Of a stretch of 44,475 bases of DNA, positions 1,882 to 39,724 are shown piece after piece. Position 1 is the stretch's first letter; each line of letters starts with the position of its first letter. The stretch is taken from the NCBI GenBank assembly GCA_020047935.1, contig JAIFNC010000057.1, positions 1-44,475 on the forward strand. The letters run 5' to 3'. The position numbers were made by a program, and so were the translations under genes. The notes under the pieces were generated by a model. It did not search any database. It was not told the DNA's origin and saw only the letters and a program-made list of their open reading frames with translations. The DNA is from Bacteroidota bacterium (lineage in GTDB: Bacteria; Bacteroidota; Bacteroidia; Bacteroidales; JAIFNC01).

Positions 1882-3435
1882 TTAATAAAGTATAAATTTA
1901 CGTAATCTTTCACTAACTTTAATGAAGTATTCATTAAGTAAATTTTCCTTTTCGGTGTCATTGTAATATTCTGTATCTTCCAATGATACACCCAATGAAA
2001 TTAATAATTTAAGCATAATATCTTTGGTTTCTATAGATGCTTTTGACATGAACTTTACCCAAAATGGATGTTCTTGATTTATTTCTAAAATATATAAACT
2101 ATGTTCTTTAACTGCTTTAAACATTAAACCATTTTCACCAAATCTAACAAATCTGTAGTCACAAAATTTATCATCACGGCTTCTTGTTTGTCCTGGTTTA
2201 CTACCAGGGGTTTTTATTTCTTTTATTTCAACTGGTTCTTCTCTTTTTTTGTTCATTCCACGTAACTTAGGAATATCAATAAATGGTGTGATGTTAATAC
2301 TTTTAATTGAATCATCTAATTCTTTTTTAATATCATCACTTGGTTCGTTTGATGTTTCCTTATTCTCTTCCTTACTTTTAATACTTTTAATATAAGGTTT
2401 GAATGATAGTTGACAAACATCCCTAAAACCTTGGTCAATATCATTTTTATCTGTTTCATGAATCATTTTATTAAATGTTGAGCCAAACAAGTCATCACAA
2501 TCACCATTAATAAATAATTCAATTCTTAATCCATTTAAATGACCATCACCCAATTTTCCAACCATACCCAAATCCAAACCAGACCCAACTAATCTATTAT
2601 TTCTGTAGATATATAGTCCTGCATTTGATTGATTTCTATTTATTTTTCGGGATATTGTTTCATTAACTTTTTCAATATCATAAATACTAAATTTAAAATC
2701 GTGTTCATCATATTTGAATTTCTCATTGGATGTTAAACATTTTGTATAATTTTCTTTGCGATACATTGGGTCAAAACTTTCAACAATTTCGTTATTAACG
2801 TATATCTTAATATTCGACTCATCAATAAAAAATTTGTAGATTAATGATATTTTATTTTTCAATGTTTCTTTAAATATAGTAATATTATTGTTTGTTACTC
2901 TGTCTAATTTAGTTATCGTTACAATAGTTCCAGTATCAGAATTACCATTTAATTGTTTGAACTCATCATACTCATCAGAAGAACCAATCCTAACAGGTAT
3001 CTGAAATTGATTACCTTTAATCAGTTCATCTAAATCATATGTTGCCACATAAAATTCATCATTGTCTGATTTAGTTCTGATTTCAAACTCCCTACCAATA
3101 GATAAAGCAGCAGCTTTTAGTCCAGTACCATATGAACCTAAATCTAATGTTTTGTTTTTACCTGTTATAGCGCCAAGCTTAAAAGCTTCGTCAAGTGTGT
3201 TAATGTCCATACCACACCCATCATCACAAATTTTAATGTAATCATAATCTTCCTTGGACTTTTTTACGATAATCCTAACATTCTTAGAATTAACATCAGT
3301 ATCCAGCGAGTTATCAACAATATCTGCAATTGCAGTATAATTATTATAACCTGAATTCCTCAACGTAGTTAAGAAATTTACATTTGGTGTCACATCTATT
3401 TGCGACTTTTTAATTTTTAATTCACTCATAATCAA
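1882..3435 (-). CDS. GHKL (Bergerat-fold, MORC/MutL-like) ATPase
   Basis: 517 aa. N-box IADIVDNSLD, G1 box ICDDGCGMD and G2 box GSYGTGLKAA in the N-terminal third, followed by a long C-terminal region with no motif I recognise. Confidence 0.75.
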   Translation of the reverse strand: MIMSELKIKKSQIDVTPNVNFLTTLRNSGYNNYTAIADIVDNSLDTDVNSKNVRIIVKKSKEDYDYIKICDDGCGMDINTLDEAFKLGAITGKNKTLDLGSYGTGLKAAALSIGREFEIRTKSDNDEFYVATYDLDELIKGNQFQIPVRIGSSDEYDEFKQLNGNSDTGTIVTITKLDRVTNNNITIFKETLKNKISLIYKFFIDESNIKIYVNNEIVESFDPMYRKENYTKCLTSNEKFKYDEHDFKFSIYDIEKVNETISRKINRNQSNAGLYIYRNNRLVGSGLDLGMVGKLGDGHLNGLRIELFINGDCDDLFGSTFNKMIHETDKNDIDQGFRDVCQLSFKPYIKSIKSKEENKETSNEPSDDIKKELDDSIKSINITPFIDIPKLRGMNKKREEPVEIKEIKTPGSKPGQTRSRDDKFCDYRFVRFGENGLMFKAVKEHSLYILEINQEHPFWVKFMSKASIETKDIMLKLLISLGVSLEDTEYYNDTEKENLLNEYFIKVSERLRKFILY

Positions 3436-3528: not shown

Positions 3529-4176
3529 TTATAAAACAACATTTGTATCATTGTTTTCACTATTTTTAACCTCTTTATTCTTTTTTCTACGTTCAGCACT
3601 TCTACGTCCGTACATTTTCCCACTGAAACTAGCCATTAAACTAACCAAGTCAGTAACCAAATCTTCCTGTTCACTAACATCATTCTTTTCAATGTGAATA
3701 ATCTCAACACCATAACTACTAAACATTCGTTCAATGAAGTTATATTGAAATCGTGTTAACCTATCCTTATGTTCGATTATAACTTTATTAACTTTCTTAT
3801 CAATAACTAAATTAGTCAGTTTAATAAACCCATTTCTTGTATCAGATAGACCCGAACCAACATCTTTAATAATGAAACCAACATTAAGTTTCTTCTTAGC
3901 ACAGTATTCACTTAAACGTTGTGATTGTCTATCTAAGTCACCTTTTTGTTTCTGTTCATGTGAGCTAACACGAGAATAGGTCGCAACCAAATCGGACGTT
4001 TCTACAACACTTTTATTAATTCCGATATATTCATCCAACTGTTCTTGTTGGTATCGTCTATGACCACCAGTAGTGGTTATAGGTATAAGTACACCTGACT
4101 TACCCCAACGCCTTAATGTTTCTTTTGCCACATTAAGATATTCTGATGCTTGTTTTAATGTTAACAGTTTACTCAT
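3529..4176 (-). CDS. tnpA: IS607-type serine recombinase/transposase (MerR-like HTH + resolvase core)
   Basis: HTH LTLKQASEYLNVAKETLRRWGKSG...GGHRRY, then YSRVSSHEQK (catalytic Ser), DVGSGL and KDRLTRF. Start taken at MSKLL (ATG 4176). Confidence 0.9.
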   Translation of the reverse strand: MSKLLTLKQASEYLNVAKETLRRWGKSGVLIPITTTGGHRRYQQEQLDEYIGINKSVVETSDLVATYSRVSSHEQKQKGDLDRQSQRLSEYCAKKKLNVGFIIKDVGSGLSDTRNGFIKLTNLVIDKKVNKVIIEHKDRLTRFQYNFIERMFSSYGVEIIHIEKNDVSEQEDLVTDLVSLMASFSGKMYGRRSAERRKKNKEVKNSENNDTNVVL

Positions 4177-4177
4177 T

Positions 4178-4381
4178 CTATTCCTCAATATTTTTTATAT
4201 GATTCAGAATCATAGATTTTGATTCATCTAATAATTTTTGGAATTCTTCAACGGTAATGTCTTCATCCAATTCAAATACGTTTGGATAAACATCACCATT
4301 TTCAAGTTCATATTCGGTTTTAGAAACACGAACAACTTTCATATTTTTTTCTTCCATAATTTTTATTATTTTATTCTTCAT
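4178..4381 (-). CDS. Hypothetical small acidic protein (67 aa)
   Basis: ORF ends at TAG 4178-4180, 1 nt before the tnpA ATG (TAGAATG junction). No motif recognised. Confidence 0.4.
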   Translation of the reverse strand: MKNKIIKIMEEKNMKVVRVSKTEYELENGDVYPNVFELDEDITVEEFQKLLDESKSMILNHIKNIEE

Positions 4382-5712: not shown

Positions 5713-6489
5713 TTATATTAATATTTTATTAATTGATTCTTTATCTTGTGAAAAGATTGCTGGATCTGTTGATACCCATTTATTTCTTTTTGCACCATTA
5801 ACGTCAAATTCTTGTTTAACGATAAGTCTACCACGTTTTTGTTTAACGGGTAAGTCATTCCAATTAATACCTTTTTGGTAACATAACTCTTGCATATCAT
5901 TCTGATTCTTACCGTTCAATTCTTTAGCCGAATATAGTGATTGTGCAACTGATGATATACTATTTCTTACAGTATCTTGCTGTCTCCATTGAAGATTATT
6001 TAATACTTCGTCTTTAAATGGTATAGTAAACGCTCTACTATCAAATTGTGCCATTTTAAAATCAGAAATTATTTTACTAATCATTAATCCATCGTATTCG
6101 TTAATTGGTTTTTCATTAAAAAACCTCATAATTCTTAATTGATTAAATTTTTCAGTTGTCATTGATGCGGATATACTTGTCATTTTTTGTACTTCCCCAT
6201 CAAACCAAGCATCAGTAGTTATACTGTCAAAATCAGTAAGTACTATTGTGATTTCATCTGATTGTACAAACGCTAACTTAGCACCTTGGATGTTAGCACA
6301 AAGATATTTAGCTGTTTCATCCATATCTTCAATTAAACCAACATCAAACGGTTTTTTTAGTCCTTTTGTGTAATTTTTAAATGAACGCCCATCTAATCTA
6401 ATTATAGTGTATGTTCTTCTTGGAAGATAAGTTCTTGACCTTTCTTCATAAAATTTTTTTTGTCGTATCGACAAATTATCTTTACTCAT
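5713..6489 (-). CDS. Thg1-like protein (tRNA-His guanylyltransferase family, 3'-5' nucleotidyltransferase)
   Basis: IIRLDGRSFKNYTKGLKKPFD, then AFVQSDEITIVL. These match the Thg1/TLP metal-binding signatures (RxDGRxF and SDE) at the usual spacing. Confidence 0.65.
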   Translation of the reverse strand: MSKDNLSIRQKKFYEERSRTYLPRRTYTIIRLDGRSFKNYTKGLKKPFDVGLIEDMDETAKYLCANIQGAKLAFVQSDEITIVLTDFDSITTDAWFDGEVQKMTSISASMTTEKFNQLRIMRFFNEKPINEYDGLMISKIISDFKMAQFDSRAFTIPFKDEVLNNLQWRQQDTVRNSISSVAQSLYSAKELNGKNQNDMQELCYQKGINWNDLPVKQKRGRLIVKQEFDVNGAKRNKWVSTDPAIFSQDKESINKILI

Positions 6490-9244: not shown

Positions 9245-9276
9245 TTTGGTTATGCCATCTAAATTATATATCTTTG
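9245..9276 (+). promoter_or_regulatory. Promoter of the cas operon
   Basis: TTTG 9245-9248, 20 nt, TATCTTTG 9269-9276. The ATG follows 24 nt downstream. Confidence 0.55.
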
Positions 9277-9300
9277 TGTCATAATTAAAAACAAATAAAA

Positions 9301-10362
9301 ATGAAAAAAGTAAAAACTATTCTATTAAAAGTAGAATTAAAAGGTAATGGTATTGTAAATTTTGATAGTGGCGATCAAAAATATATATGGAATAAAAACG
9401 CAACTGATAATGGACACGAAAAAAGTCCATATGATAATGTTTCTTTTGCTAAAAAAAGATGGTACAAAGAAAATGGTAAAACAACGCATAAAATAATTAT
9501 TTCGAGCAATTGTCTTCGACATAATATATTTTCCAATGACGTATTGTTTCAATCACCAAACATTATGAATAATAAAAATCTTTTATACTCAATGATTGGT
9601 TCACCAGGTTCACTATTAAGAGGTTATTTATTCGCTCAAAAAGATGCTACATCAATACATAGATCAAGTGTTCTGAATATTACTGATGCTCAGCAAACAA
9701 ACGAGGCGATATCATCAATAGAAACATTCGCCAGAAGTGGTGAAAAAGTTACTGATGAAAATAAATCAGATACAAGTTTCTTTAAAAAAGAATCTATTGG
9801 TGATATTACTTATGAAGCTCTTGGTTCAATTGATTTAATGCAATTACAATTTGTCAGTTGTGATGAAATATTTGATCGACTAGCATTTAATCCTGATGAT
9901 TTTGAAGAATATAAAAAATCTATGGTGACAAGATTTCCAGATTTCAATCCAACATTAGGTTATTATCAAATTAAAAATAGTGTAATCGAATTACCTGAAT
10001 ACGGCATTAAACTTTCCGAAGAAAACACTGTTTCATTAACTAAAGAGTTATTAACACGTATTTTAAACACAAACATACGAACATCTGGCGCGTATGCTGA
10101 GGTTGTGAAAGTTTCTTATAAATTGGTGTACGATGCTTTTGAAAATAAAATGTCTAATAAAGATGGTTGGGTTGAAATAAGTCAAAAATCTATTGACGAT
10201 TTATATTTTGAACCACAAGATTATTATGAAAATTACGATTCTGAAACAGCATCGGAATTAAGAAAATCTTTAACTGAAATATCTCGTTTAAAAAAGGAAA
10301 AAAATAAAGAAGAGGCGGACGCTAAAAACAAAGAAAAGAAAAAAACTAAAACTGAAAAATAA
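9301..10362 (+). CDS. cas7: Cas7-like backbone subunit (putative), with a Lys-rich C-terminal tail
   Basis: First gene of the operon that also holds cas6, the array and cas3. HKIIISSNCLRHNIFS resembles the Cas7 'ISSQSLKRxxR' segment. The tail reads KKEKNKEEADAKNKEKKKTKTEK. The assignment rests on context plus a weak motif. Confidence 0.5.
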   Translation: MKKVKTILLKVELKGNGIVNFDSGDQKYIWNKNATDNGHEKSPYDNVSFAKKRWYKENGKTTHKIIISSNCLRHNIFSNDVLFQSPNIMNNKNLLYSMIGSPGSLLRGYLFAQKDATSIHRSSVLNITDAQQTNEAISSIETFARSGEKVTDENKSDTSFFKKESIGDITYEALGSIDLMQLQFVSCDEIFDRLAFNPDDFEEYKKSMVTRFPDFNPTLGYYQIKNSVIELPEYGIKLSEENTVSLTKELLTRILNTNIRTSGAYAEVVKVSYKLVYDAFENKMSNKDGWVEISQKSIDDLYFEPQDYYENYDSETASELRKSLTEISRLKKEKNKEEADAKNKEKKKTKTEK

Positions 10363-10364
10363 TT

Positions 10365-11261
10365 ATGAAATATTTAAAATTAACATTTAAAAATGCAGGA
10401 TTTTTCATAATTAATAATGGTACTAAAGATTTTGTTTTCGATATAAATGGACAACGAAAACGTAAGGATGCGTTTATGTCAAAACAACAAAAAGTAAGTA
10501 TATCGGTAAATCAAATTAGTAATATGTTGCACGTATTAATGGGTGAAAGACCCAGTGCAACATATAGGGAAACTTATATTAAGTCAATTCCATATATTTT
10601 TGAAGTCGCCCAAAATTCATATATTAAAATCGATAATCCAAGATTCTCTTTTGTGGATAAAAAGACACAAGATACAAAATTTTATTATCAATCAGAAACC
10701 ATTACTACCCGAAAATCAGTTTGGAATAGTTTCAGTAAAACTAAAGATCTTGTTTATTGGAAACGAATTGAAAATGCGTTAACCGATGATGATAATTCTA
10801 AATATATTGAAATGATTTCATTATTTAGTGAAATTCTTGGTTATAACGTGTTAACTAAACCTGCTGAAGAGGTGGTTGAAGAATTAAGACTTAAACACCC
10901 TTATAATCAAAAAATTAATGATTTTAAATCATCATTAAAAGGAAAAACGCCAATTATAAAATTTATTGATGGTGATTATTGGGCTAATGGTACTGGTAAT
11001 GGTGATTTAAATAAAAATTCAAGAACATTGATTACAACGAATAATGGTATTGAAAAAATTATTAGATTGTCAGGGTCAATAATTATACCATTAAATGATA
11101 ATGACATTGAAAAAATACGCAATTCCAAATCAACAGCAACTTTACTTGATGGTGGCGTTGTATGGGTCGAAGATTTAATTGACGAAAATGATTTTGGTAT
11201 TATTGAATTAATTGAATACGTTAATATTAATAAATTAGAAGAATATGAGAATAAAATTTAA
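10365..11261 (+). CDS. cas5: Cas5-like (or Cas5/Cas8-like) subunit, putative
   Basis: Starts 2 nt after the cas7-like stop and overlaps cas6 by 17 nt. VNQISNMLHVLMGERPS is reminiscent of the Cas5 N-terminal helix. Assigned mainly by position. Confidence 0.4.
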   Translation: MKYLKLTFKNAGFFIINNGTKDFVFDINGQRKRKDAFMSKQQKVSISVNQISNMLHVLMGERPSATYRETYIKSIPYIFEVAQNSYIKIDNPRFSFVDKKTQDTKFYYQSETITTRKSVWNSFSKTKDLVYWKRIENALTDDDNSKYIEMISLFSEILGYNVLTKPAEEVVEELRLKHPYNQKINDFKSSLKGKTPIIKFIDGDYWANGTGNGDLNKNSRTLITTNNGIEKIIRLSGSIIIPLNDNDIEKIRNSKSTATLLDGGVVWVEDLIDENDFGIIELIEYVNINKLEEYENKI

Positions 11262-11949
11262 TTTCACAAAAAATACTACACCAGTAAATATTAATAATCA
11301 ATCTGATGTAAATTATTATATACATAAATGTTTAGGTGATAATAATCCATACCATGATGCTAAAAATGATTATTCAATATCTAATCTACAAGGTGGTAAA
11401 CTTATAAAGGGTACAAAAAATCTTCAGTTTGATAATGGTGGGTTTATTACTATAACATCATTAAATACCATTTTTATTAATGATATTATTGGGGGAATTA
11501 TGTCAAATCCACAATTGAAATGGGGAATGGTATTTAAAAATGTCGAATTTATTAATGAAAACTTTATTAATGGATGGAATCATTTTGCTACTTTATCACC
11601 TTTTATTATTAAAAAATATTCGGATAAAAACACTTATTCATTTGCCACAATCAATGATAATGATTTTAATACTATCGTCAAAAATCATATTGTTAATAAA
11701 CTGACAAAAATTTATCCTACCATCAAACTGGATAACTTTGATGTACAAATTAAAAATCATCCATCACATAAAGTGTCTAAAGTTAGGGTTAAAAATGTTT
11801 TAAATATCGGTAATCAATGCCACGTAAGTATTTTCACAACTAAAGATGTTGCCGAAAAAATTTATAATATTGGGTTAGGACAATCAACAGGGTCAGGTTT
11901 TGGTACAATATATAAAACAGAAAATCGTTCTACTTATAAATTAGAATAA
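11245..11949 (+). CDS. cas6: Cas6 endoribonuclease
   Basis: N-terminus MRIKFNF and the C-terminal glycine-rich loop GLGQSTGSGFGTI (the GhGxxxxxGhG Cas6 signature). Lies directly upstream of the array. Confidence 0.8.
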   Translation: MRIKFNFTKNTTPVNINNQSDVNYYIHKCLGDNNPYHDAKNDYSISNLQGGKLIKGTKNLQFDNGGFITITSLNTIFINDIIGGIMSNPQLKWGMVFKNVEFINENFINGWNHFATLSPFIIKKYSDKNTYSFATINDNDFNTIVKNHIVNKLTKIYPTIKLDNFDVQIKNHPSHKVSKVRVKNVLNIGNQCHVSIFTTKDVAEKIYNIGLGQSTGSGFGTIYKTENRSTYKLE

Positions 11950-11990
11950 AAAAAATGGTGAAGGTTAAACTATATTATATTATTAATAGT

Positions 11991-11998
11991 TATATTTG
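11991..11998 (+). promoter_or_regulatory. Candidate -7 box in the CRISPR leader
   Basis: TATATTTG lies 52 nt before repeat 1 in an A/T-rich 101-nt leader (11950-12050). No clear -33 element. Confidence 0.3.
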
Positions 11999-12050
11999 TA
12001 TCGTCAAACCATCCTTAAATGGTTTAATTTCAATGAATTATATAAAACCT

Positions 12051-12613
12051 ACTGTATCTTATCCAATTCCGCAAGGGAATCACAACTTTACAACATTGTT
12101 ATATATTACCGTGATTACTGTATCTTATCCAATTCCGCGAGGGAATCACAACTGAATATTATTATGGTGAAGATATGTGAGAACTGTATCTTATCCAATT
12201 CCGCAAGGGAATCACAACAATGTGGGTGTACTATAATATTAAAAATATACTGTATCTTATCCAATTCCGCAAGGGAATCACAACGGTGACACATATACTG
12301 TTACATACAATGGTACTGTATCTTATCCAATTCCGCAAGGGAATCACAACAATATTAGGTCATTATAGTGTTTTTTACGACTGTATCTTATCCAATTCCG
12401 CAAGGGAATCACAACACAAAGGGTGATGTTTCAATTTCGCCCCATACTGTATCTTATCCAATTCCGCAAGGGAATCACAACAAAAATAACTTTGCCTTGC
12501 CTTGATTAAAAACTGTATCTTATCCAATTCCGTAAGGGAATCACAAGGGAACAGCTAAAAGTAATAACAATGATTTCACAGTTTCTTATCCAATTCCGTA
12601 AGGGAATCACAAC
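12051..12613 (+). CRISPR. CRISPR array, 9 repeats and 8 spacers
   Basis: 36-nt repeat ACTGTATCTTATCCAATTCCGCAAGGGAATCACAAC starting at 12051, 12117, 12183, 12249, 12315, 12380, 12446, 12512 and 12578. Spacers are 30, 30, 30, 30, 29, 30, 30 and 30 nt, all different. The last two repeats are degenerate, so the leader is on the cas6 side. Confidence 0.97.
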
Positions 12614-12679
12614 TAAATAAGGTTGAATTCTTTGGGGTCGGTCTTCATTTGTTTTTTTTTATATTATTCCATACAGGAA

Positions 12680-12711
12680 TTTGTTTATATGAAATATTTG
12701 TATTATCTTTG
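12680..12711 (+). promoter_or_regulatory. Promoter of cas3
   Basis: TTTG 12680-12683, 20 nt, TATCTTTG 12704-12711. ATG 12728 follows 16 nt downstream. Confidence 0.5.
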
Positions 12712-12727
12712 TACCAAAATAAAAATT

Positions 12728-14977
12728 ATGATTGAAAAACTTTTATCAAATAGTAACGGTACGAATCTTATAACCCATTTAAAAGCAACATCTAAAATTG
12801 CTGGCATTCTTTGTGATCGTATGGGGTTATCCGATGATAAAAAAATTATAATACAAACATCAGCATTATTACATGATATTGGTAAATCATATAGTGTGTT
12901 TTATGATTATATTAGTACTGGCGTTGAATCTGATGAATTTTTGACTAATAAAATTTTACATCATGAAGTATCTTGGGCGGTATTATTATATCTATTGGTG
13001 GATAATAAATATAAACACAATATTCTTCATGCTATTTATTGGCATCATGCTAAAGACGCGTCAACAATGAATAAAGAATATGCATCAAGTATTATCGAAA
13101 AAATTAATGTTAATGATAGACTACAAATAGTTCAACTATTTAACTTTTTAACTAATGATAATAAAACTATTGATGTTTTTAATGATGACATTAATAATGA
13201 CGAATATCCTATTTACTTTAAAAACAAATCTAACGATAATAACAACGCTATTAATTTTTTAACAATGGGATGCCTAGTATCTGCCGACAGATATGTGTCT
13301 ATATTTAATCAAGAAAAAATATTAATCAATGATGATTATTGTTTTGAAATTGTTAATAAAATTGAAATATGTAATAAACGACCATATTCAATTCCTGAAC
13401 ATTATGATCTTGAACGATTTAATAAACAAGTTGAATATGTTTCATTAATACCAAACAATACTACTACTATTTTTAAAGCACCTGCAGGTTTTGGTAAAAC
13501 CCCAACGGGTCTTATATGTTGGAATACTAAATCAAGAAAAAAATTGATATGGGTGTGCCCAAGAAACGTTGTGGCCGAAACGGTTTATCAAAATATCATT
13601 AATGAACTAGATGCGTTAAACCTTAATGATACTAAAGTTGAATTATATTTAACAAGTAATGTAGTTAAATCAAATTATAATAATTACTCGGATTTTTCAT
13701 CTGATATTATCGTCACTAATATTGATAATTTTCTTAACCCTACAATTAATAACTGGGTTAAAAATAGAATGTTTAATATATTCTCTTCTGATGTGATTTT
13801 TGATGAATTTCATGAATTTATTGGGGATGAACCATTATTTGCATCGTTTGTTAATGTAATGAGAATTAGACATAGATATACAAACTCTAATACGTTATTA
13901 CTTAGTGCCACCCCAACACTAATGAATTTTTTGTGGGATACTATCAATAATGAAACTATTATTTTACCTAATAATCAAACACATTACCCACCAGTACACA
14001 ATAAACCTTATAATTTTAATTATGTATCTGACTTTAATAGTATATTACCACAAAAAAACACTTTATTTGCTACAAATGCTATTAAATCTTCCCAAATTTT
14101 AACTATAAATAAACATTATTCAAATATAGTACATAGTAAATTTACAGATACTGATCGAAAACGAATTATTACTAATTTATTTAATATGTATGGTAAAAAT
14201 TCTACTGAAGAAAAAAAAGACGTTATATCTGCACCACTTGTTAGGGCCGCGATGGATTTATCATTTCAAAATTTATATATTATTATCAAATCAATTGAAG
14301 ATTTTTTACAAACAATTGGTAGAATAAATAGGTGGAATGAATATGATTATGCTAATGTTTATGTGATCATTGACATTAATAACCCTACTATTAAAAAATC
14401 TGAAATTGCCGCAATCAAATATACGTATAATGAAACTTTATACAATATTTGGGTTGATTTTATAAAAAAAGAAATGGTTGATGGTAATTCATATAATCTA
14501 ACTGAATTATACAATTTATATAATAAATTTAATATAACATATAAAACTAATATTATTGAATATATTAACAATAAATTTATTAACAGTACTGTTAATCTAT
14601 CTAAAATATATCCGAAAAAATATTTAATACCAGAAAACGACACTAGCACTAAAATTAAAACTTCTAAATTAAGAGATAACGGAAATGAAAAAATATATTG
14701 TATATATCGTAATTATTTTAATGATGATTATACCGAACCTTTTTTAATTGATATGGAAGATGAAAATATTAATGAAAATAGTTTGAAATTTATTGTTAAA
14801 AATATTGAACGTTTAATAACTGATGAAAGATTTGAATATACTAAATATACTTTGAAATATATTCAAAATGATATTAATAAACTAAAAATAATGGCTACAA
14901 ACCCTAAAACACCATATATATCTTTCAATAAAGTTTACCACCAAAAACTTGGTATAATAGATAAAAATTTATGTTAA
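12728..14977 (+). CDS. cas3: Cas3 (N-terminal HD nuclease + SF2 helicase)
   Basis: HD motifs: LLHDIGKS, HHEVSW, YWHHAK. Helicase motifs: APAGFGKTP (I), FDEFHEF (II, DExH), LLSATP (III), VHSKFTDTDR, QTIGRINRW (VI). The track start 12623 is a TTG upstream of the promoter; ATG 12728 (MIEKLL) is preferred. Confidence 0.88.
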   Translation: MIEKLLSNSNGTNLITHLKATSKIAGILCDRMGLSDDKKIIIQTSALLHDIGKSYSVFYDYISTGVESDEFLTNKILHHEVSWAVLLYLLVDNKYKHNILHAIYWHHAKDASTMNKEYASSIIEKINVNDRLQIVQLFNFLTNDNKTIDVFNDDINNDEYPIYFKNKSNDNNNAINFLTMGCLVSADRYVSIFNQEKILINDDYCFEIVNKIEICNKRPYSIPEHYDLERFNKQVEYVSLIPNNTTTIFKAPAGFGKTPTGLICWNTKSRKKLIWVCPRNVVAETVYQNIINELDALNLNDTKVELYLTSNVVKSNYNNYSDFSSDIIVTNIDNFLNPTINNWVKNRMFNIFSSDVIFDEFHEFIGDEPLFASFVNVMRIRHRYTNSNTLLLSATPTLMNFLWDTINNETIILPNNQTHYPPVHNKPYNFNYVSDFNSILPQKNTLFATNAIKSSQILTINKHYSNIVHSKFTDTDRKRIITNLFNMYGKNSTEEKKDVISAPLVRAAMDLSFQNLYIIIKSIEDFLQTIGRINRWNEYDYANVYVIIDINNPTIKKSEIAAIKYTYNETLYNIWVDFIKKEMVDGNSYNLTELYNLYNKFNITYKTNIIEYINNKFINSTVNLSKIYPKKYLIPENDTSTKIKTSKLRDNGNEKIYCIYRNYFNDDYTEPFLIDMEDENINENSLKFIVKNIERLITDERFEYTKYTLKYIQNDINKLKIMATNPKTPYISFNKVYHQKLGIIDKNLC

Positions 14978-15222
14978 CAAATGATGATTTAATTAAACTT
15001 GGTTTTAAACCTATACCACATTTTACTATTGGTAATTCCGTTACTTATGATTTAGGTAGAGGAAGACATTTATCTGCAGGGAATGTTGGTACTCCTAATG
15101 AAATGGTCTTTATTTGTGCAACTGATTATAAGGATAAAACTAACATTACCGATCTTGTTTGTTTACATAACTATGATTATGATGGATACATTACTGAAGA
15201 GAAAATTAAAATATATATGTAG
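14971..15222 (+). CDS. Hypothetical protein (83 aa) translationally coupled to cas3
   Basis: Its ATG overlaps the cas3 stop (ATGTTAA). No Cas1, Cas2 or Cas4 motif recognised. Confidence 0.45.
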   Translation: MLTNDDLIKLGFKPIPHFTIGNSVTYDLGRGRHLSAGNVGTPNEMVFICATDYKDKTNITDLVCLHNYDYDGYITEEKIKIYM

Positions 15223-15242
15223 TTAAAATATATTAAATGATT

Positions 15243-15398
15243 CTATTTTGATACTTTCTTTTCTTTAAAATAAGATAATAGTATGGTTTCAATCATATTA
15301 TTGGTTGATGGTCGGTTTTCTTCTAACCGAGCTTTTTCAATTGCATCAACTAACCAATCATTTTTATCTGTGAATTTTAAGGATATTCTATTTGCCAT
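15243..15398 (-). CDS. Small RHH-like protein (51 aa), my own ORF call
   Basis: MANRISLKFTDKNDWLVDAIEKARLEENRPSTNNMIETILLSYFKEKKVSK. The pattern is a beta-strand followed by two helices. Its ATG is 1 nt after the helicase stop (TAAAATG). Confidence 0.35.
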   Translation of the reverse strand: MANRISLKFTDKNDWLVDAIEKARLEENRPSTNNMIETILLSYFKEKKVSK

Positions 15399-15399
15399 T

Positions 15400-16935
15400 T
15401 TATAATCCGAATTGTTTGATTAATAAATCACTTATACTTAATTCCGCATGTTTTTCTGCTTCTAATTGAGCTTCCAATTTTTCAATGGTTTGTCCTACGT
15501 TTGGTAATCGTCTTCTTAGTTCATTTAAACCGTCTGGTTGATCGATTTCTGATACGCCATGGATTCTATCCATTCCAACAATATCTTCGTTAGGATTAAA
15601 CCCATAATCACGTAATTCTGTTATTAATTGTATAACATTTGCTTTATCATCCTCATTTCCATTATAAACACTTGGTATCATTATGTAAGCATATGGTTTA
15701 TTCATTAATTCCAAATCATTAACACAAATTACGTTAGTGTCAATTTTTTTCCTATCATCAATATCTGGTCTGGCTGACCTACCATATGTTTGTAAAAATT
15801 TACTCTTTGATAATGTCCTTAATGGCATTATACCAGAAAACCCACTAACATCAATTCCCTCAGCTAATATATCATAATGTAATACTATTAGTTTCTTAGT
15901 GATATCTAAACCATCCATCTTTAATCTTCTTAAAAAATCTTGACGATTTACTTGTTCACCATTGATATTATTACCAACTTCACCATTAGATGCTACGGCA
16001 TATATACTAACGCCAGCATTAATTAATTGACTATATTCCCTACTGTTAAGGAAATTAATAATATCCTGTGTACCCTTTGCCGATACTAAAACCTTTGGTA
16101 ATCTCTTAGTTAATATTTTACCATGTTGTTCAAAGGTATCTTTAATGATTTTATTTAATGATCGGTTATAATCATCTACATTATAAACACCATCAGTAAT
16201 AACAAAATGTAATCTCGGTCTAACCATCTTACCCAATTCAATCGCTTGCCTTGGTATCATACTATATAATAGTTCTCCGTATGACTCACTATTATTCATT
16301 CCCCTACCTGTATCTGATGGCGTCGAAATTGTGGTTGCGGTAAAGAAATAACACCTTTCAGATTTTAATGTATGCAATATATCATGAAATTGCTCCTGTA
16401 CCAAATAATGGGCTTCATCATTTAATATTATAGATATTGGATTAAACCCTTCTCTAGCATCCTCGATTCTTTCTGCCGAATTATATGTACTGAAAAATAT
16501 TAATGGTAAATTTTGTTCCTTAGCCTTAAACATCATTCCTCGTATGTCTGACATACTTGTTCCCGAACCAATTTCAGAAAATGGTATACTTGCACCATCA
16601 AGATTAGCCTTGATACGAATATCTTCTAACTCCTTTTCATTTGTCTTTCCACCACTATGTACAAACATATAACGAGCTTCTATCTTCGCATCAACTAAAA
16701 ATCCATAAACCTCTTTTAAAAGTTGATACGTTAATACTATTCTCGGTGCATTAACAACATACATACGAAAACCACTATTCTTTATAATGTCATCAGCAAT
16801 TATCGCCGCCTGACAGAATGTCTTACCTACACCCGTTGGCATACATACTATACCTTTTTCTCTCGATATTGCACTAGCCACGGCTTCCTTTTGATATGGA
16901 TATAACCTATCAAGTATATTTATTCTACTTTCCAT
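15400..16935 (-). CDS. SF2 (DEAH/ResIII-type) helicase
   Basis: CMPTGVGKT (I), LNDEAHYL (II), FFTATT (III), QTYGRSARP (VI). Confidence 0.8.
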   Translation of the reverse strand: MESRINILDRLYPYQKEAVASAISREKGIVCMPTGVGKTFCQAAIIADDIIKNSGFRMYVVNAPRIVLTYQLLKEVYGFLVDAKIEARYMFVHSGGKTNEKELEDIRIKANLDGASIPFSEIGSGTSMSDIRGMMFKAKEQNLPLIFFSTYNSAERIEDAREGFNPISIILNDEAHYLVQEQFHDILHTLKSERCYFFTATTISTPSDTGRGMNNSESYGELLYSMIPRQAIELGKMVRPRLHFVITDGVYNVDDYNRSLNKIIKDTFEQHGKILTKRLPKVLVSAKGTQDIINFLNSREYSQLINAGVSIYAVASNGEVGNNINGEQVNRQDFLRRLKMDGLDITKKLIVLHYDILAEGIDVSGFSGIMPLRTLSKSKFLQTYGRSARPDIDDRKKIDTNVICVNDLELMNKPYAYIMIPSVYNGNEDDKANVIQLITELRDYGFNPNEDIVGMDRIHGVSEIDQPDGLNELRRRLPNVGQTIEKLEAQLEAEKHAELSISDLLIKQFGL

Positions 16936-17623: not shown

Positions 17624-19111
17624 TTAAATAAACTCTTTCCAAAAATCTTTTCTAAGTAATGAAATTGCTTTATAATTATATCTATGTCTTCCAACACCTG
17701 TCGTACCATCACTAAATGACATTAACTCCATAAATTTTGGGTTAAGCATTGCTCTTTGAATATATGGTAGATTTTTTGGTTCATCAACAATTGCATAAGA
17801 AAATTGTGTCATCGCATATTCACCACTTTCATCAATAACTGGCGATGACGCACCTCCATTACTAAAAATAACTTTAGATATACCAAAATGACCATGTTCT
17901 TTTGTACTTGAATAACGAAGATTTAAAGAACCATCTTTATATGTAACATAAACAACTGGATATTTAAACACATCGGTTTGTTCTTTTGATACATATTCTT
18001 TTTGTATATGGTATTTACAATTATATAATATACTTACATTATCCTCACCTTTTTTAGCAAGAAGTTTTTGATATTCCTTATACATTCCGTTAGGTATAAA
18101 TTTCATTTTAGAAATATCTATTCTTTGAGTTGTACCATCCATACATTTAATTTTTGTAAACATAGTGTTAGATACGTTATGTAGACAATAGAAATCGTAT
18201 GTTGTATATGCACCGAAAGTACTAAAACCGTCATTAGTATTATGTAATTCCAAATAAAGTAATTGTTTAGATTTAAGCAATGTTTTAACTTTATCAAAAC
18301 CATTACCCAAACTTCTCCAACCATCAGGATGTACAGCGACTAGATAACCACCATCAACCAATTGGTCAACAGTTTTAATAACAAACTTATCCCATAGAAC
18401 ATGTGCAGAACCACGGTTAGGATTACCATCATTATACGGGGGATTCATAACAATAACATCAAATTTATCCACACCCCAATCTTTCATTCTCTCATTGAAA
18501 TCATCAGTTAAATAACTTCCATGATAAATATTCAATGCATATTCATCTTTTGGATCGAATGAATATAAATAAAGAAATAAATTCTTTGCCTGTAACTCAC
18601 ATACATATATCATATTCTCTAATATATGTTTATATCTTAATTTTTCATCTGGCTCAAAACTAATAAGACCTTTCATAAGTCTTTCTATTACTACTGAAAA
18701 GAACGTTCCTACACCATTACAAGGATCTAACCATTTAAGATTTGGATTTGTCCATACTTCATATGGTAAGGTATCTAACATTTCTTCTACTAATGTAATA
18801 GGTGTCATTACCTCACCCATAGTTTTTACTTCTGTTGGTGATACCTTAACATATTCACGAATCATTCCAACAACATCTTTAATATGCGACATTTCACTAT
18901 AGTTATCAGTATCCACTGTTTTCTGAATCTTACTACACATTAATCGATGCTCTACATTGTTCTCTTCCAGTATAGTCAATATCATTGACCTACGTTTCTC
19001 TATCGGAGCATTATTAATCATAGATTTAATTTCGGTAGTCATTCCATTAATACCATCGATTATCATATCTTGGATAAGATTTTCGTAAGTGTTTTTTAAT
19101 TCTGTATTCAT
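17624..19111 (-). CDS. N6-adenine DNA methyltransferase (gamma class, Eco57I/TaqI-like)
   Basis: Motif I LDPCNGVGTFF, motif IV VIVMNPPYN, and a long C-terminal target-recognition region. Confidence 0.8.
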   Translation of the reverse strand: MNTELKNTYENLIQDMIIDGINGMTTEIKSMINNAPIEKRRSMILTILEENNVEHRLMCSKIQKTVDTDNYSEMSHIKDVVGMIREYVKVSPTEVKTMGEVMTPITLVEEMLDTLPYEVWTNPNLKWLDPCNGVGTFFSVVIERLMKGLISFEPDEKLRYKHILENMIYVCELQAKNLFLYLYSFDPKDEYALNIYHGSYLTDDFNERMKDWGVDKFDVIVMNPPYNDGNPNRGSAHVLWDKFVIKTVDQLVDGGYLVAVHPDGWRSLGNGFDKVKTLLKSKQLLYLELHNTNDGFSTFGAYTTYDFYCLHNVSNTMFTKIKCMDGTTQRIDISKMKFIPNGMYKEYQKLLAKKGEDNVSILYNCKYHIQKEYVSKEQTDVFKYPVVYVTYKDGSLNLRYSSTKEHGHFGISKVIFSNGGASSPVIDESGEYAMTQFSYAIVDEPKNLPYIQRAMLNPKFMELMSFSDGTTGVGRHRYNYKAISLLRKDFWKEFI

Positions 19112-19146
19112 AATATGTTCTTTTTAATCGTTATTACTTTATGGTA

Positions 19147-19178
19147 CAAAGGTAAGACTTTTATTCCATATACACAAA
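19147..19178 (-). promoter_or_regulatory. Promoter of the methyltransferase operon; right border copy of the island promoter subfamily
   Basis: Minus sense: TTTG (19175-19178), 20 nt, then TACCTTTG (19147-19154). Homologous to 9137-9168. Confidence 0.5.
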
Positions 19179-19427
19179 TATTTTAACACCTTTTAATACA
19201 CCCCTAAAATACCTTTCATAACCTACTAATACCCAGTGTATTACAAACTCGTTTTGTCGTAGTTTAGTTTAACGATTTTTATACACCACTTTACCCCATT
19301 TCACCCCACCTAAATTATTGATAATTATTATGGTTAGATAGATAAAATCTATACCCATTTTCACGTCATACAATTCGTCTGGGATTGTCCCGTGTGTGAG
19401 TCAGTGAGTATAATAATATAATTTTAA

Positions 19428-19435
19428 TATCTTTG
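19428..19435 (+). promoter_or_regulatory. Orphan plus-strand -7 box (TATCTTTG)
   Basis: Followed only by 10- and 12-codon mini-ORFs and then the hairpin at 19591-19620. Confidence 0.3.
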
Positions 19436-19590
19436 TATATAAAATAAATTGGTATGAAGTGTCATAATGCAAGGACAAATAAATAAAACAGTACAAAAAG
19501 GAAGTTATGAAAAAAAAGTTCTTAGGGATAAAAAAAATATTGTAAGTTAAAATGGTGTTATTAGTAGCATAATGTCATACGGGAATAAAA

Positions 19591-19620
19591 CCCCCCTATA
19601 GAAATACACTAATAGGGGGG
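19591..19620. terminator. Bidirectional hairpin terminator
   Basis: cccccctat / atagggggg, a 9-bp GC-rich stem flanked by AAAA and TTTT. Confidence 0.75.
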
Positions 19621-19649
19621 TTTTAACTTAAAATAAATAAAAGAAAAAA

Positions 19650-19886
19650 TTACGCAACATATAATTTTTTAAATTTAATAGCTTCTTTTCGAGTATTAAA
19701 GTTTTTGGATTTTTTAAAACCGTCTTTCATAAATCTAACTCTGAACGTATTTCCATTGAAATATACATGGTCAGTGATAGGGATATATGACGATACATAT
19801 TTTCTAACAGTTTTGGTGGTAGTTTTATTCACATTAAATTTAAGTGAATTAGTAATTTTAGTAATAAGTTGATTAAACGTTGTCAT
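19650..19886 (-). CDS. Basic small protein, possibly DNA-binding (AP2/Arm-like pattern)
   Basis: YFNGNTFRVRFMKDGFKKSKNFNTRKEAIKFKK resembles the AP2-type three-strand-plus-helix pattern. Weak. Confidence 0.45.
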   Translation of the reverse strand: MTTFNQLITKITNSLKFNVNKTTTKTVRKYVSSYIPITDHVYFNGNTFRVRFMKDGFKKSKNFNTRKEAIKFKKLYVA

Positions 19887-19946
19887 ACAATAAAATTTTA
19901 GATGTTATAAAACAAATATACTAAAAAAAAATGATAAAAACAAATA

Positions 19947-20180
19947 TTAGTTATTAAAACTGTCAAGAATAATATTATATTGGTTATTAATTTTGTCATG
20001 TAATCTATTCATAAATTGTCCGAACACATAAGAGTTAATCGAGTCGTCTTTAAGTAGTGTATTTTCGAAAGTTCTTAATTTTTTTCTGACGGAAGTTTCT
20101 TCATCAATAGTATTGCAAGATTCAATGGTTTCTTCTAACCAAGTAAAAGTTTCGTAGTAATTTTCTTTTTTAGCACACAT
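19947..20180 (-). CDS. Hypothetical protein (77 aa)
   Basis: Track ORF. Confidence 0.45.
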   Translation of the reverse strand: MCAKKENYYETFTWLEETIESCNTIDEETSVRKKLRTFENTLLKDDSINSYVFGQFMNRLHDKINNQYNIILDSFNN

Positions 20181-20288
20181 AATATTATATTTATAAATAA
20201 ATATCAGTGATAATATAAAAAGTGATATTTTTTTTAATAAAAGTAGTAAAGAAAACTACATATTTAAAAATCAATGTAGTAATAAATA

Positions 20289-20438
20289 CTACAACCATAT
20301 TATAAGGTTATATATTCCCCAACATAGATATAGCCAGTTGAATATTCCTGTAAATATAAAGAAGTTTTTAACATTTACCCAGCTAGTGTTATAAATTGAT
20401 AGTCCAATAAAAAACAATACAATTAAGAAATTCACCAT
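20289..20438 (-). CDS. Small 2-TM membrane protein (49 aa), my own ORF call
   Basis: MVNFLIVLFFIGLSIYNTSWVNVKNFFIFTGIFNWLYLCWGIYNLIIWL. The stop overlaps the hairpin TGTAGTA/TACTACA at 20275-20293. Confidence 0.35.
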   Translation of the reverse strand: MVNFLIVLFFIGLSIYNTSWVNVKNFFIFTGIFNWLYLCWGIYNLIIWL

Positions 20439-20753
20439 GTTTAAAATTATTTAACATAAAACTTATTGTAGATTAGAATAAAAGTATTATCTTTGTATTG
20501 TAATAATTACTTACTTACCCATATTGTATCTACTTAATATATTCCACAAAGATACAAAAAATTCATCAGACTGCCAAACATTTTAGGTATTATTTCTTCA
20601 GGTTCAGGAAGGATCATCACAGGATAAAACTCACACCTGGAACTTTAACAATGTTAAAAAATGTATATTTTTTGTATATAGTAAAGAAAACTACATACAG
20701 AAATTTTTAATTATTTATATTTATACAAAATATTATGTATATAAATACAAAAA

Positions 20754-20783
20754 TCCCCAACAATAAAGAAATCGTTGGGGATT
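20754..20783 (-). terminator. Hairpin terminator
   Basis: atccccaac / gttggggat; the T-run follows in the minus sense. Confidence 0.65.
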
Positions 20784-20801
20784 AATAATAATGAAGTGAT
20801 A

Positions 20802-20975
20802 TTAGTTCAGGAATGTAACATCATTTTTATCGAGGAGTATAGAAACCTCCGTTTTGATGTGGTGTTGTGTCAGGACTTTATCATCCTTTATTTGGTAGTT
20901 GTATACTTCGGTTTTAGGGTATATCACCTTAAATAAACCTGACGCTACTGGGTGTTTTAATTTAAGTGTTACCAT
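20802..20975 (-). CDS. Hypothetical protein (57 aa), my own ORF call
   Basis: MVTLKLKHPVASGLFKV... Followed by the terminator at 20754-20783. Confidence 0.35.
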   Translation of the reverse strand: MVTLKLKHPVASGLFKVIYPKTEVYNYQIKDDKVLTQHHIKTEVSILLDKNDVTFLN

Positions 20976-21282
20976 GATTACATAGTAATTTTTTCTATGG
21001 TGAATTTAAAATTAGTATTGTGAGAGTCAAACGGTCAGAAAATATCATACAGATCGATTTCAGATTCTTTTAACCCTTCGAGACCAATCATAATTTCTTG
21101 TAGTGTCATAATAAAATTTATTAGTTTATATAATTGAATACAAATATACTCATAGTATAGTATATGGTCAAATATTAAATGTTAAAGTTTGTTAAGATGC
21201 AATGTTAAAGAACCAGGTATGAGTTTAAAAGTTATGAATAAATTAAACTCATACGTGGCAATTTAACAATGTTAAAATAAAA

Positions 21283-21308
21283 ATCCCCGTGTAGTAAAAC
21301 ACGGGGAT
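21283..21308 (-). terminator. Hairpin terminator
   Basis: atccccgtg / cacggggat; the T-run follows in the minus sense. Confidence 0.65.
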
Positions 21309-21319
21309 TTAATAATCAA

Positions 21320-21493
21320 TTATAGTCCAACAAAATAAATAATATTTGGTATATGTATAACATAGACAATACCATTTTCAGTGACGCTAATGAATAGATT
21401 AGTGTTATTTTTAATTTTGATTTTAAGGTCGTCGCGGGTTAATGTTTCATCCGTGATTTGGATATTATCCCTTAAAATTATTCTGACTCCCAT
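21320..21493 (-). CDS. Hypothetical protein (57 aa), my own ORF call
   Basis: MGVRIILRDNIQITDE... TAATATG junction with the upstream ORF; a terminator follows. Confidence 0.4.
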   Translation of the reverse strand: MGVRIILRDNIQITDETLTRDDLKIKIKNNTNLFISVTENGIVYVIHIPNIIYFVGL

Positions 21494-27010: not shown

Positions 27011-27263
27011 GATAATAATTTTTTTTAGTTGTTTTTATTCTGTTTTAATTATGATACAAAGATAATATATTGATATGACATGTACAAGTAAATTAACTTT
27101 TTTAACAATGTTAAAGATCCAGTTATGAGTTTTATGTACCCCGTCGCCAGGATTAACTAGAAGAAACTCACACCCAGAATTTTAACATATTGGTATTACA
27201 AAAAAAGAAACCCCCAACCATTTCTGACTGAGGATTTCCAGGCAACATATAAAACAACTAAAA
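27011..27263 (-). promoter_or_regulatory. Intergenic regulatory cassette
   Basis: -7 complement 27057-27064. Palindrome 27101-27115. Arms 27119-27133 and 27163-27177. Terminator about 27211-27233. Confidence 0.6.
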
Positions 27264-39307: not shown

Positions 39308-39724
39308 AATTGTAAATTTTATTTATTGTTTTAATTCTGATACAAAGATAATACATTAATACCAATTGCACAAGCATTTTAACACTTTTAACATTGTTAA
39401 TGAGCCTGTTATGAGTTTGTAATACCTTCCAGTATTCTTCCAGTATTCTTCCAGTATTCTTCCAGTATTCTTCCAGTATTCTTCCAGTATTCTTCCAGTA
39501 TTCCTACTAAACTCACAGACAGCGTTTTAACATATCGTAATACAGAAAACCCCGCGTTTCACAACGCAGGGAACTCTTAATTTAACAATTTAACTATGGA
39601 CAAACCGTTCAATGAAACTCACACAAATATATACAAGTACCAATTTCCTAATTCAACGATTACCGCAATTTTTAAACTTTCGTTTCAAATTGTCTTACAT
39701 AATATCCAAAGGAGAAAATTCGGA
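39308..39724 (-). promoter_or_regulatory. Intergenic regulatory cassette whose centre is an 11-bp tandem array
   Basis: -7 complement 39343-39350. Palindrome 39387-39401. Arms 39408-39421 and 39512-39526. Terminator 39553-39574. Confidence 0.6.
39430..39506. repeat. Perfect tandem repeat, 7 x 11 bp (TTCCAGTATTC)
   Basis: Units start at 39430, 39441, 39452, 39463, 39474, 39485 and 39496, each checked base by base. Confidence 0.95.

Follow-up and report, generated by a model that had tools for sequence, protein, structure and literature searches.

Here we describe a compact locus of CRISPR (short palindromic repeats, clustered and regularly interspaced) and CRISPR-associated (cas) genes on contig JAIFNC010000057.1, which was analysed over its full 44,475 nucleotides (nt) and is referred to below as the window. 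Three tightly coupled open reading frames (ORFs), predicted to encode a Cas7 backbone protein, a Cas5-like protein and a Cas6 endoribonuclease, are followed by a nine-repeat array and a cas3 gene, and together they form a plus-strand island (9301-14977) in a 44.5-kb ORF map that is otherwise transcribed from the minus strand. From its gene content, its surroundings and the targets of its spacers, we consider it likely that this type I system is functional, is confined to interference and descends from subtype I-F2 (I-Fv), and that a large phage carries it for use in competition between phages.

Gene products of the cas cassette

The first two ORFs are separated by 2 nt, and the second overlaps the third by 17 nt (Table 1). 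The product of ORF1 finds its sole NCBIfam match in NF040577 (Cas7fv; E = 1.1e-29), with a score of 103.7 bits that is about half the 200-bit equivalog cutoff of the model and hence below threshold. Cas7fv is also the best PADLOC model (4.6e-22, 77 bits), with the Cas7f of subtype I-F1 near it (68 bits), and the only significant relatives among PDB sequences are the Cas7fv chains 5o6u_C and 9g44_F of the Shewanella putrefaciens I-F2 Cascade (~3e-17). The recently created Pfam family PF28157, "Cas7fv-like", is precomputed on all 105 listed homologues of this Cas7, and its existence means that the protein has already been seen by database curators. These matches identify ORF1 as a Cas7fv homologue and backbone subunit that is no equivalog of Cas7fv. 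Members of the phage family described below are 350-380 amino acids (aa) long, as against 315-326 aa in canonical Cas7fv; the C-terminal tail of the window protein (10255-10362, residues ~319-353) is Lys-rich and is retained across the phage family as a K-rich segment.

The product of ORF3 matches the Cas6 model TIGR01877 at 3.1e-20 (73.5 bits, above the cutoff of 58.65), PADLOC Cas6b at 3.6e-38 and Pfam Cas_Cas6_C at 5.7e-11, and it contains the G-rich loop GLGQSTGSGFG. No Cas6f (Csy4) profile matched it, and BLASTP against the Acinetobacter Cas6f gave an E-value of 0.17. By these profiles it is a generic or Cas6b-type endoribonuclease for the processing of CRISPR RNA (crRNA), and not a Cas6f.

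For cas3, the mechanically called start (TTG, 12623) lies too near the end of the array. Translation from the ATG at 12728 gives the conserved N-terminus, MIEKLLSNSNG, which is common to the window and to L001, the closest complete relative. The catalytic motifs are complete (LHDIGK, APAGFGKT, DEFHEF, SAT and QTIGRINR), and Pfam recognises HD, DEAD and Cas3-like_C_2 domains. The best PADLOC model is Cas3fv (1.1e-56), followed by Cas3b (1.8e-30), and the single match among PDB sequences is the I-F2 Cas3 chain 9g44_A (2.4e-40), a Cas2-truncated construct of a natural Cas2-3 fusion (PMC12956352). The 982-aa Cas2-3fv of Acinetobacter aligns to the window Cas3 only from its own residue 154, and to all related phage Cas3 proteins only from residue 101 or later; the HD domain of the window protein begins near its N-terminus. 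Since the N-terminal part of Cas2-3fv is left unaligned in the window and in all relatives, the Cas2 domain is missing throughout the phage family, and the predicted product of cas3 is a stand-alone HD nuclease and superfamily 2 (DExH) helicase.

ORF2 is the most difficult to assign: its sequence has no match in Pfam, NCBIfam, PADLOC or, by phmmer, PDB sequences, a family profile built from 40 sequences has none in PDB, and Pfam PF20158, the helical AH domain of Cas5fv, was not matched. Alignment of the ORF2 family with Cas5fv by hhalign, as a single sequence or as a 13-sequence alignment, was not significant (E ~0.1; 0.12), the only aligned stretch being the alpha-1 helix after the first strand (ISVNQISNMLHVLMGERP in ORF2, ISKDTVMGILNRLIGDQ in Cas5fv), the region in which Cas5 proteins have their conserved motif. 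The AlphaFold (AF2) model made on the family alignment is confident, with a predicted local distance difference test (pLDDT) score of 84.5. In it, a beta/alpha core makes up the N-terminal part and a beta-alpha-beta unit the C-terminal part, and there are a beta-hairpin region and five helices in one block (residues ~132-202). When this model was compared with PDB by Foldseek, the sole match with E <0.001 was 5o6u_F (E = 7e-6, probability 1.0), at a template modelling (TM) score of just 0.37/0.34; the chain is Cas5fv, as Acinetobacter Cas5fv matches it at 2e-122. Weaker matches were mostly Cas5- and Cas7-class subunits of other class 1 complexes, plus some ribosomal proteins. In related loci the ORF2 gene invariably lies between cas7 and cas6. 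Because of its modelled fold, its length, its inserted helical domain and this invariant position, ORF2 is likely to be a Cas5fv-like subunit, which would presumably cap the 5' handle of the crRNA and read the protospacer adjacent motif (PAM).

A PADLOC scan of the 57 other window ORFs of at least 60 aa, run as a concatenation, found no Cas1, Cas2, Cas4, Cas8 or Cas11, and neither the window nor its relatives have extra operon genes. The only other Cas-like match is a TnpB/Cas12f-like ORF cut by the window start (PADLOC Cas12u4, 3e-69).

An 83-aa ORF (14971-15222, plus strand), which overlaps the stop codon of cas3 by 7 nt and matches no family, was considered as a further cas gene and rejected. 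Its sole homologue (65% identical at the aa and 72% at the nt level) is in the 636-kb genome of an uncultured phage, LR756504.1, where no cas gene lies within 10 kb, and it was not found beside any related cas locus.

Most of what an earlier reading of the sequence (the original prediction) had proposed for these genes is thus borne out. The three coupled plus-strand ORFs, and the array between cas6 and cas3, agree with the coordinates; the backbone assignment of ORF1 is met by Cas7fv as top match in NCBIfam, PADLOC and PDB sequences; the third ORF, called Cas6 for its G-rich loop, passes the family cutoff; and for the HD and DExH Cas3 placed after the array all five motifs were found, in agreement with the Pfam domains. 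The Cas5-like call for ORF2 is upheld by fold and gene position, with no sequence match, and the reported lack of cas1, cas2, cas4, cas8 and cas11 in the window by the PADLOC scan. The inclusion of 14971-15222 in the locus had to be abandoned. The DNA-binding role that the original prediction gave to the Lys-rich tail of Cas7, in place of the missing subunits, is a hypothetical one.

Array, leader and promoter motif

The 36-nt array repeat is ACTGTATCTTATCCAATTCCGCAAGGGAATCACAAC. Seven of the nine repeats are identical; a single substitution is found in one, and the degenerate state of the last two places the leader on the cas6 side of the array. Seven of the eight spacers are 30 nt long and one is 29 nt. 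The hairpin of the repeat is weak (5 bp, dG -4.6 kcal/mol, z -1.5), its 3' end, GGGAATCACAAC, is kept across related loci, and an Rfam scan of the window gave no match. The A/T-rich leader holds a -7-like element that may act as a promoter.

A 22-nt motif, TATCTTTGTATCATAATTAAAA, occurs at 15 sites in the window, where chance would give 0.08, and each time it lies just upstream of a start codon, on the coding strand (examples are the two plus-strand sites in Table 1 and the minus-strand sites 27043-27064 and 39329-39350), and 20 of the 64 ORFs have its core, TATCTTTG, at most 60 nt upstream. Both cas7 and cas3 are preceded by a perfect match to the degenerate pattern, and at both genes TTTG stands exactly 20 nt upstream of the motif. 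The arrangement TTTG...TAnnTTTG is the -33/-7 promoter layout of Bacteroidota, bacteria in which A-rich leaders without a Shine-Dalgarno sequence are typical. With its TAnnTTTG, the -7 signature of Bacteroidota, the motif has the look of a promoter class of the phage, and the cas genes appear to use this class as well. The claim that cas3 has a promoter of its own is supported by this predicted element, which is of the same motif class as that of cas7 and has the same TTTG spacing. A sigma-70 scan of the window (55 sites against 56.8 expected) was uninformative in this AT-rich DNA, as was a terminator scan.

Nucleotide homology between the window and its close relative L044, whose Cas7 is 94% identical, starts inside the promoter motif of cas7 (window position 9283, L044 position 9982), and the flanks upstream of this point are unrelated, which indicates that the cas cassette sits in different neighbourhoods in close relatives. 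It is tempting to speculate that the repeated promoter motif is a recombination point at which cassettes are shuffled.

A family of loci on large viral contigs

Neighbours of the locus match phage families in PHROG (DNA methyltransferases, a helicase, a Thg1-like protein, GP88 and DUF932), and seven window genes between 19650 and 29079 have homologues in the flanks of the cas locus on an IMG/VR contig of 310 kb. In metagenomes, more than 40 loci contain the four-gene set, and many of these are on viral contigs of 280-700 kb. In IMG/VR, an alignment-based scan found 33 loci with the system, many on contigs of 280-600 kb, where a single-protein scan had found none. The same four genes are present in L001, a 326-kb contig of the Joint Genome Institute (JGI), for whose protein a 711-kb contig is also on record. 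A 364-kb NCBI contig carries the locus as well, next to genes for initiation factor 3 (IF3), phosphoribosyl pyrophosphate (PRPP) synthetase, deoxycytidine monophosphate (dCMP) deaminase and a tRNA-binding protein, all of them genes that huge phages typically carry. The phage-like element of the original prediction is thereby supported from three sides (PHROG neighbours, relatives on viral contigs, and genes in common with the 310-kb contig), and the window is probably a fragment of a large, probably huge, phage.

At 90% identity the Cas7 family comprises 105 clusters and the Cas5-like family 44 clusters, the latter from a word-indexed search; an exhaustive profile search for the Cas5-like family gave 516 representatives at 50% identity. 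Scans of 185,579 cellular species-representative genomes with the repeat core and the Cas7 profile found the repeat core in none of them and a single match to the profile, on a 9.8-kb contig of a Bacteroidia metagenome-assembled genome (MAG). This contig carries cas7-cas5-cas6-array without cas8, and any cas3 would lie beyond its end. Among GenBank phages, tblastn detected no Cas7 homologue, and a DNA-level search with the locus matched only the 83-aa ORF. The phage family is essentially restricted to viral contigs. The host of the phage in the window is likely to belong to the Bacteroidota, as judged by the promoter style and the one MAG contig.

The gene order in most loci is cas3-cas7-cas5-cas6-array, and cas3 follows the array in the sub-branch of the window. 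Repeats of the main clade are 36 nt long, with a constant 3' end and a variable 5' half, and its spacers measure 30 nt. Divergent loci have repeats of 28-32 nt ending ...AATTGAAA(G) and spacers of 32-35 nt, and in L030 and L033-L037 (at ~12000-15500) a small Cas6e-like or type-IV-like Cas6 of 154-184 aa is encoded. The crRNA-processing module has been swapped more than once within the family, which presents a conserved Cas7/Cas5/Cas3 core and exchangeable modules for processing and adaptation.

L030 (IMGVR_UViG_3300028833_000278, 42 kb) has adaptation genes at 12668-13731, between its small type-IV-like Cas6 and an array of 30 repeats of 28 nt: an I-E-like Cas1 (PADLOC Cas1e, 2.5e-44) and an overlapping 82-aa ORF that is Cas2-like from sequence alone. 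When about 45 related loci were searched by tblastn with two Cas1 queries and one Cas2 query, matches were obtained only in L030, and the 10-kb surroundings of four relatives for which Pfam tables were available contain neither Cas1 nor Cas2.

In comparison with L044 (93-96% protein identity), the ratio of nonsynonymous to synonymous substitution rates (dN/dS) is 0.11 for cas7, 0.09 for cas5 and 0.06 for cas6, and the three genes are under purifying selection. Arrays in the branch of the window differ between the lineages examined, with no spacer common to any two. L045 and L046 have identical Cas7 proteins; one of their arrays is collapsed and the other contains a scaffold gap.

Spacer targets

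Spacer 4 matches, at 30 of 30 positions, nucleotides 10123-10152 of a 27.8-kb viral contig, IMGVR_UViG_3300028549_000699 (L042). Spacer 3 matches at 26 of 30 positions about 1.7 kb downstream of that site, on the same strand and in the same 689-aa ORF. A large-terminase gene (PHROG 38, 9e-73) is found some 1.3 kb upstream of this ORF. Beyond the protospacers, L042 (GC content 24%) and the window are dissimilar in both nucleotide and translated comparisons. The use against competing elements that the original prediction held plausible thus gains two spacers that match a gene of an unrelated phage. In spacer sense, the upstream flank is TCC for spacer 3 and TCT for spacer 4, and the downstream flank is AAA in both. 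CC upstream would correspond to the GG PAM of type I-F, but two sites prove nothing.

The remaining spacers gave no target: spacers 1, 2, 5, 6 and 8 had no match in IMG/VR, nor did spacers 1 and 6 in JGI metagenome contigs, and a comparison of the whole array with GenBank phages, the sole search to cover spacer 7, returned chance matches only. No spacer matches the window itself at up to six mismatches. Among 155 unique spacers from the window and its relatives, no convincing targeting of related loci was seen.

Table 1. Positions of the cas genes, the array and other features of the window
Feature	Position	Strand	Description
ORF1 (cas7)	9301-10362	+	353 aa
ORF2 (probable Cas5fv-like)	10365-11261	+	298 aa
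ORF3 (cas6)	11245-11949	+	234 aa
cas3	12728-14977	+	749 aa, ATG start
CRISPR array	12051-12613	+	nine 36-nt repeats, eight spacers
Spacer 3	12219-12248	+	30 nt
Spacer 4	12285-12314	+	30 nt
Leader	11950-12050	+	101 nt, A/T-rich; direct reading of sequence
-7-like element in leader	11991-12002	+	TATATTTGTATC; promoter role predicted from sequence
Promoter-like element of cas7, TTTG	9245-9248	+
Promoter-like element of cas7, motif	9269-9290	+	TATCTTTGTGTCATAATTAAAA
Promoter-like element of cas3, TTTG	12680-12683	+
Promoter-like element of cas3, motif	12704-12725	+	TATCTTTGTACCAAAATAAAAA
TnpB-like stretch and neighbours	1-1216, 1882-3435, 3529-4188	-	TnpB/Cas12f-like ORF, GHKL ATPase and serine recombinase

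Other genes in the window

Near the TnpB-like ORF at the start of the window are genes for an MzaB-like ATPase of the GHKL class (HATPase_c_3) and for a serine recombinase of the IS607 type that has a MerR-type helix-turn-helix, and this may be an IS607-family element, or a remnant of one, inside the phage. TnpB homologues are also found near the cas loci of L015, L031, L039 and L044.

A Thg1-like tRNA-His guanylyltransferase is encoded at 5713-6489 on the minus strand (PHROG 4717, 1e-76; Pfam Thg1), and ARAGORN found no tRNA genes in the window. Two DNA methyltransferases, one of the N6-adenine Eco57I-like kind and the other a C5-cytosine enzyme, are encoded on the minus strand (17624-19111 and 21788-22708); neither has a recognisable restriction partner, and they probably protect the DNA of the phage itself. 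Between them, the stretch 19112-21380 is poor in ORFs (none of at least 90 aa), with a GC skew near zero and several imperfect inverted repeats, and the promoter core occurs in it on the plus strand near 19430 and 20490; small proteins or RNAs may be its products.

Discussion

A Cas3 with HD and DExH domains, Cas7, a Cas5-like protein, Cas6 and an adjacent array of nine repeats make this a type I locus, and its phage context, the absence of Cas1, Cas2 and Cas4 from the window and the phage-targeting spacers place it in the class of phage-encoded systems without adaptation genes. Four hallmarks of I-F2 are missing: Cas6f, the Cas2-3 fusion, an adjacent cas1f and repeats of 27-28 nt. In the strict sense the locus therefore does fit no subtype, as the original prediction stated, but the effector is clearly derived from I-F2, and the prediction's own likening of it to I-F2 with a classical Cas6 and a stand-alone Cas3 matches the profile results. 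The 2025 classification update mentions subtypes I-F1 to I-F4, together with a form intermediate between the first two, and nothing resembling the variant was found in it; nor did we find, in the searchable literature, a paper connecting huge or jumbo phages to I-F2 (I-Fv) or describing an I-F2-like phage variant. Al-Shayeb et al. (Cell, 2022) reportedly surveyed thousands of phage CRISPR loci, and the variant may be listed there. We therefore regard the locus as a variant derived from I-F2 rather than as a type of its own; it is widespread among large phages and apparently undescribed so far.

I-F2 itself (S. putrefaciens CN-32, PDB 5O6U, 5O7H and 9G44; Acinetobacter plasmid pANC7924.1, our L041) likewise has neither Cas8 nor Cas11, and Cas8-less I-F2 Cascades are already established (PMC4937334, PMC12956352). 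Its Cas7 and Cas3 are the closest detectable relatives of those in the window, the order cas7-cas5-cas6 is common to both, and I-F2 is also found on mobile elements (PMC12956352). In its canonical form (L041) the gene order is cas1f, cas2-3, cas7fv, cas5fv, cas6f, whereas the window is without cas1f; cas3 is upstream in I-F2 and in most phage relatives, but in the sub-branch of the window the array lies between cas6 and cas3. The 195-aa Cas6f of I-F2 contrasts with a generic or Cas6b-type Cas6 of 234 aa, its repeats and spacers of 27-28 and ~32 nt with 36 and 30 nt (although divergent phage relatives do have 28-nt repeats), and the 982-aa Cas2-3 fusion of Acinetobacter with a Cas3 of 749 aa that has no Cas2 domain; the Lys-rich tail of Cas7 is a further departure.

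Other known systems resemble the locus in part. CRISPR systems of huge phages (PMC7162821, PMC11656645) are likewise phage-encoded, lack Cas1, Cas2 and Cas4 and have compact arrays with spacers against phages, so that adaptation-less systems aimed at other phages are already established; their type I example is I-C-like, without Cas6 and with another helicase in place of Cas3, whereas the window has both Cas6 and Cas3. The type I-F system of phage ICP1 (PMC10161043) is phage-borne, offensive and without Cas11, as is the window system, but it has Cas8f (Csy1), Cas6f, Cas1 and a Cas2-3 fusion and targets a host defence island. The processing module of type I-B, a Cas6b or generic Cas6 (TIGR01877) with repeats of 36-37 nt, is like that of the window; I-B has Cas8b, however, and the Cas7, Cas5 and Cas3 of the window are of the I-F2 kind. 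Type I-B was rejected because there is no Cas8b, Cas7 matches models of the I-F family only and just Cas6 is Cas6b-like. Type IV was set aside in view of the intact HD-helicase Cas3 and a Cas7 without a Csf2 match, type IV chains being weak Foldseek matches of ORF2 (E >=0.03). A CRISPR-associated transposon was also discarded: Cas3 is intact, and PADLOC, Pfam and PHROG scans, which were not aimed at Tn7, gave no Tn7 match.

If the locus works in the manner of its I-F2 relatives, phage-type promoters would drive cas7-cas5-cas6, probably with read-through into the array, and cas3 would be driven separately. Cleavage by Cas6 in the 3' region of the 36-nt repeat would leave a 5' handle of ~8 nt ending ...AUCACAAC, and Cas6 would remain at the 3' hairpin of the crRNA. 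The Cascade, free of Cas8 and Cas11, would consist of one Cas5fv-like subunit on the 5' handle and some five to six Cas7fv-like subunits on the 30-nt spacer. In I-F2, PAM reading is the task of Cas5 alone, by means of its helical domain, and Cas3 docks directly on the Cas7 backbone (PMC12956352). As in S. putrefaciens, PAM reading and the wedging open of the duplex would fall to the helical insertion of the Cas5-like protein; an R-loop would form, its displaced strand guided by the Cas7 backbone, to which Cas3 would dock directly, and the stand-alone Cas3 would unwind and degrade the DNA of a co-infecting phage. New spacers must be supplied by machinery encoded at another place in the phage genome or by that of the host, unless the array is inherited and updated only now and then. 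The repeat core, occurring in no cellular species genome, gives no sign of a host array that lends its adaptation machinery.

Several points weigh against an interference-only, phage-targeting system of I-F2 descent. The window covers 44.5 kb of a probably much larger genome, in which cas1 and cas2 could be elsewhere, and the divergent relative L030 does have a Cas1 and a Cas2-like ORF. The Cas5 assignment of ORF2 depends on one Foldseek match of modest TM-score, the hhalign comparison with Cas5fv being non-significant, and the assignment of a Bacteroidota host on promoter style and a single MAG contig. Six of the eight spacers are unmatched (five in IMG/VR, and spacer 7 in GenBank phages). 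The two protospacers differ in their flank at position -1 and yield no PAM, and the mismatches of spacer 3 fall at positions 1-3 and 9, that is, in the type I seed, so that the target copy may escape; it may be an escaper or a diverged strain.

A different view of the descent is possible, though less likely: the loci could form a large, unclassified and phage-restricted clade without Cas8, related to I-F2 and not a member of it, that has repeatedly swapped its processing module. The branch of the window would then be the one with a generic Cas6 and 36-nt repeats, and others those with Cas6e- or type-IV-like Cas6 and repeats of 28-32 nt, one of them with I-E-like Cas1 and Cas2. If true, this would imply that spacers are supplied along some unknown route, or else that bacterial I-F2 arose out of a reservoir in phages.

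It is unlikely that the locus is instead an ordinary adaptive system on a bacterial chromosome or prophage-like island, with cas1-cas2 and perhaps cas8 outside the contig. The window is a contig fragment and contains a serine recombinase and a TnpB-like gene, the one cellular match is binned in a Bacteroidia MAG, and L030 has Cas1 and Cas2 beside its array, all of which would suit such an origin. The neighbours, however, are phage-family genes on one strand that have a promoter motif in common with the cas genes, and the relatives are on viral contigs of 280-700 kb. Cas1 and Cas2 are absent within 10 kb from all four loci with Pfam tables, and the repeat core from all 185,579 genomes; the MAG match is a 9.8-kb contig and has the same layout without cas8, a gene that canonical I-F2 is also without (PMC12956352).

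About as unlikely is a role in the take-over or regulation of the host, in which the system would cut or silence chromosomal or defence-island genes, as ICP1 does with PLE. Huge phages have spacers against host genes (PMC7162821) and ICP1 has them against a host defence island (PMC11656645), and six spacers of the array are without a known target, which leaves room for targets in the host or in defence elements, the scans of cellular genomes having covered the repeat core and the Cas7 profile. Both spacers that do match hit a phage gene near the terminase gene, though, and the intact HD nuclease of Cas3 argues for degradation over repression.

It is likewise improbable that a phage took up a bacterial I-F2 system of which a non-functional remnant is now decaying, with the loss of cas1, the Cas2 domain and cas6f as steps of erosion: the missing adaptation genes, two degenerate repeats and six unmatched spacers that would speak for it are set against four intact ORFs with catalytic motifs, the low dN/dS of cas7, cas5 and cas6 (0.06-0.11), a gene set kept across hundreds of clusters, seven identical repeats out of nine and the perfect IMG/VR match of spacer 4.

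Taken as an interference-only variant of I-F2, the system is of interest for its size. No type I effector known is smaller than that of I-F2, which is under development for genome editing, and the variant is smaller still, its four proteins adding up to ~1,630 aa as against ~1,840 aa in the Acinetobacter I-F2 locus. The combination of one Cas7/Cas5/Cas3 core with unrelated Cas6 and repeat modules amounts to a natural experiment in how a Cascade recognises the crRNA handle. It also sharpens the question of where phage arrays obtain their spacers when there is neither a nearby Cas1-Cas2 nor a host array with the same repeat. From the standpoint of phage biology, huge phages gain with this family a further weapon, a class 1 system that is widespread, together with spacer matches of phage against phage.

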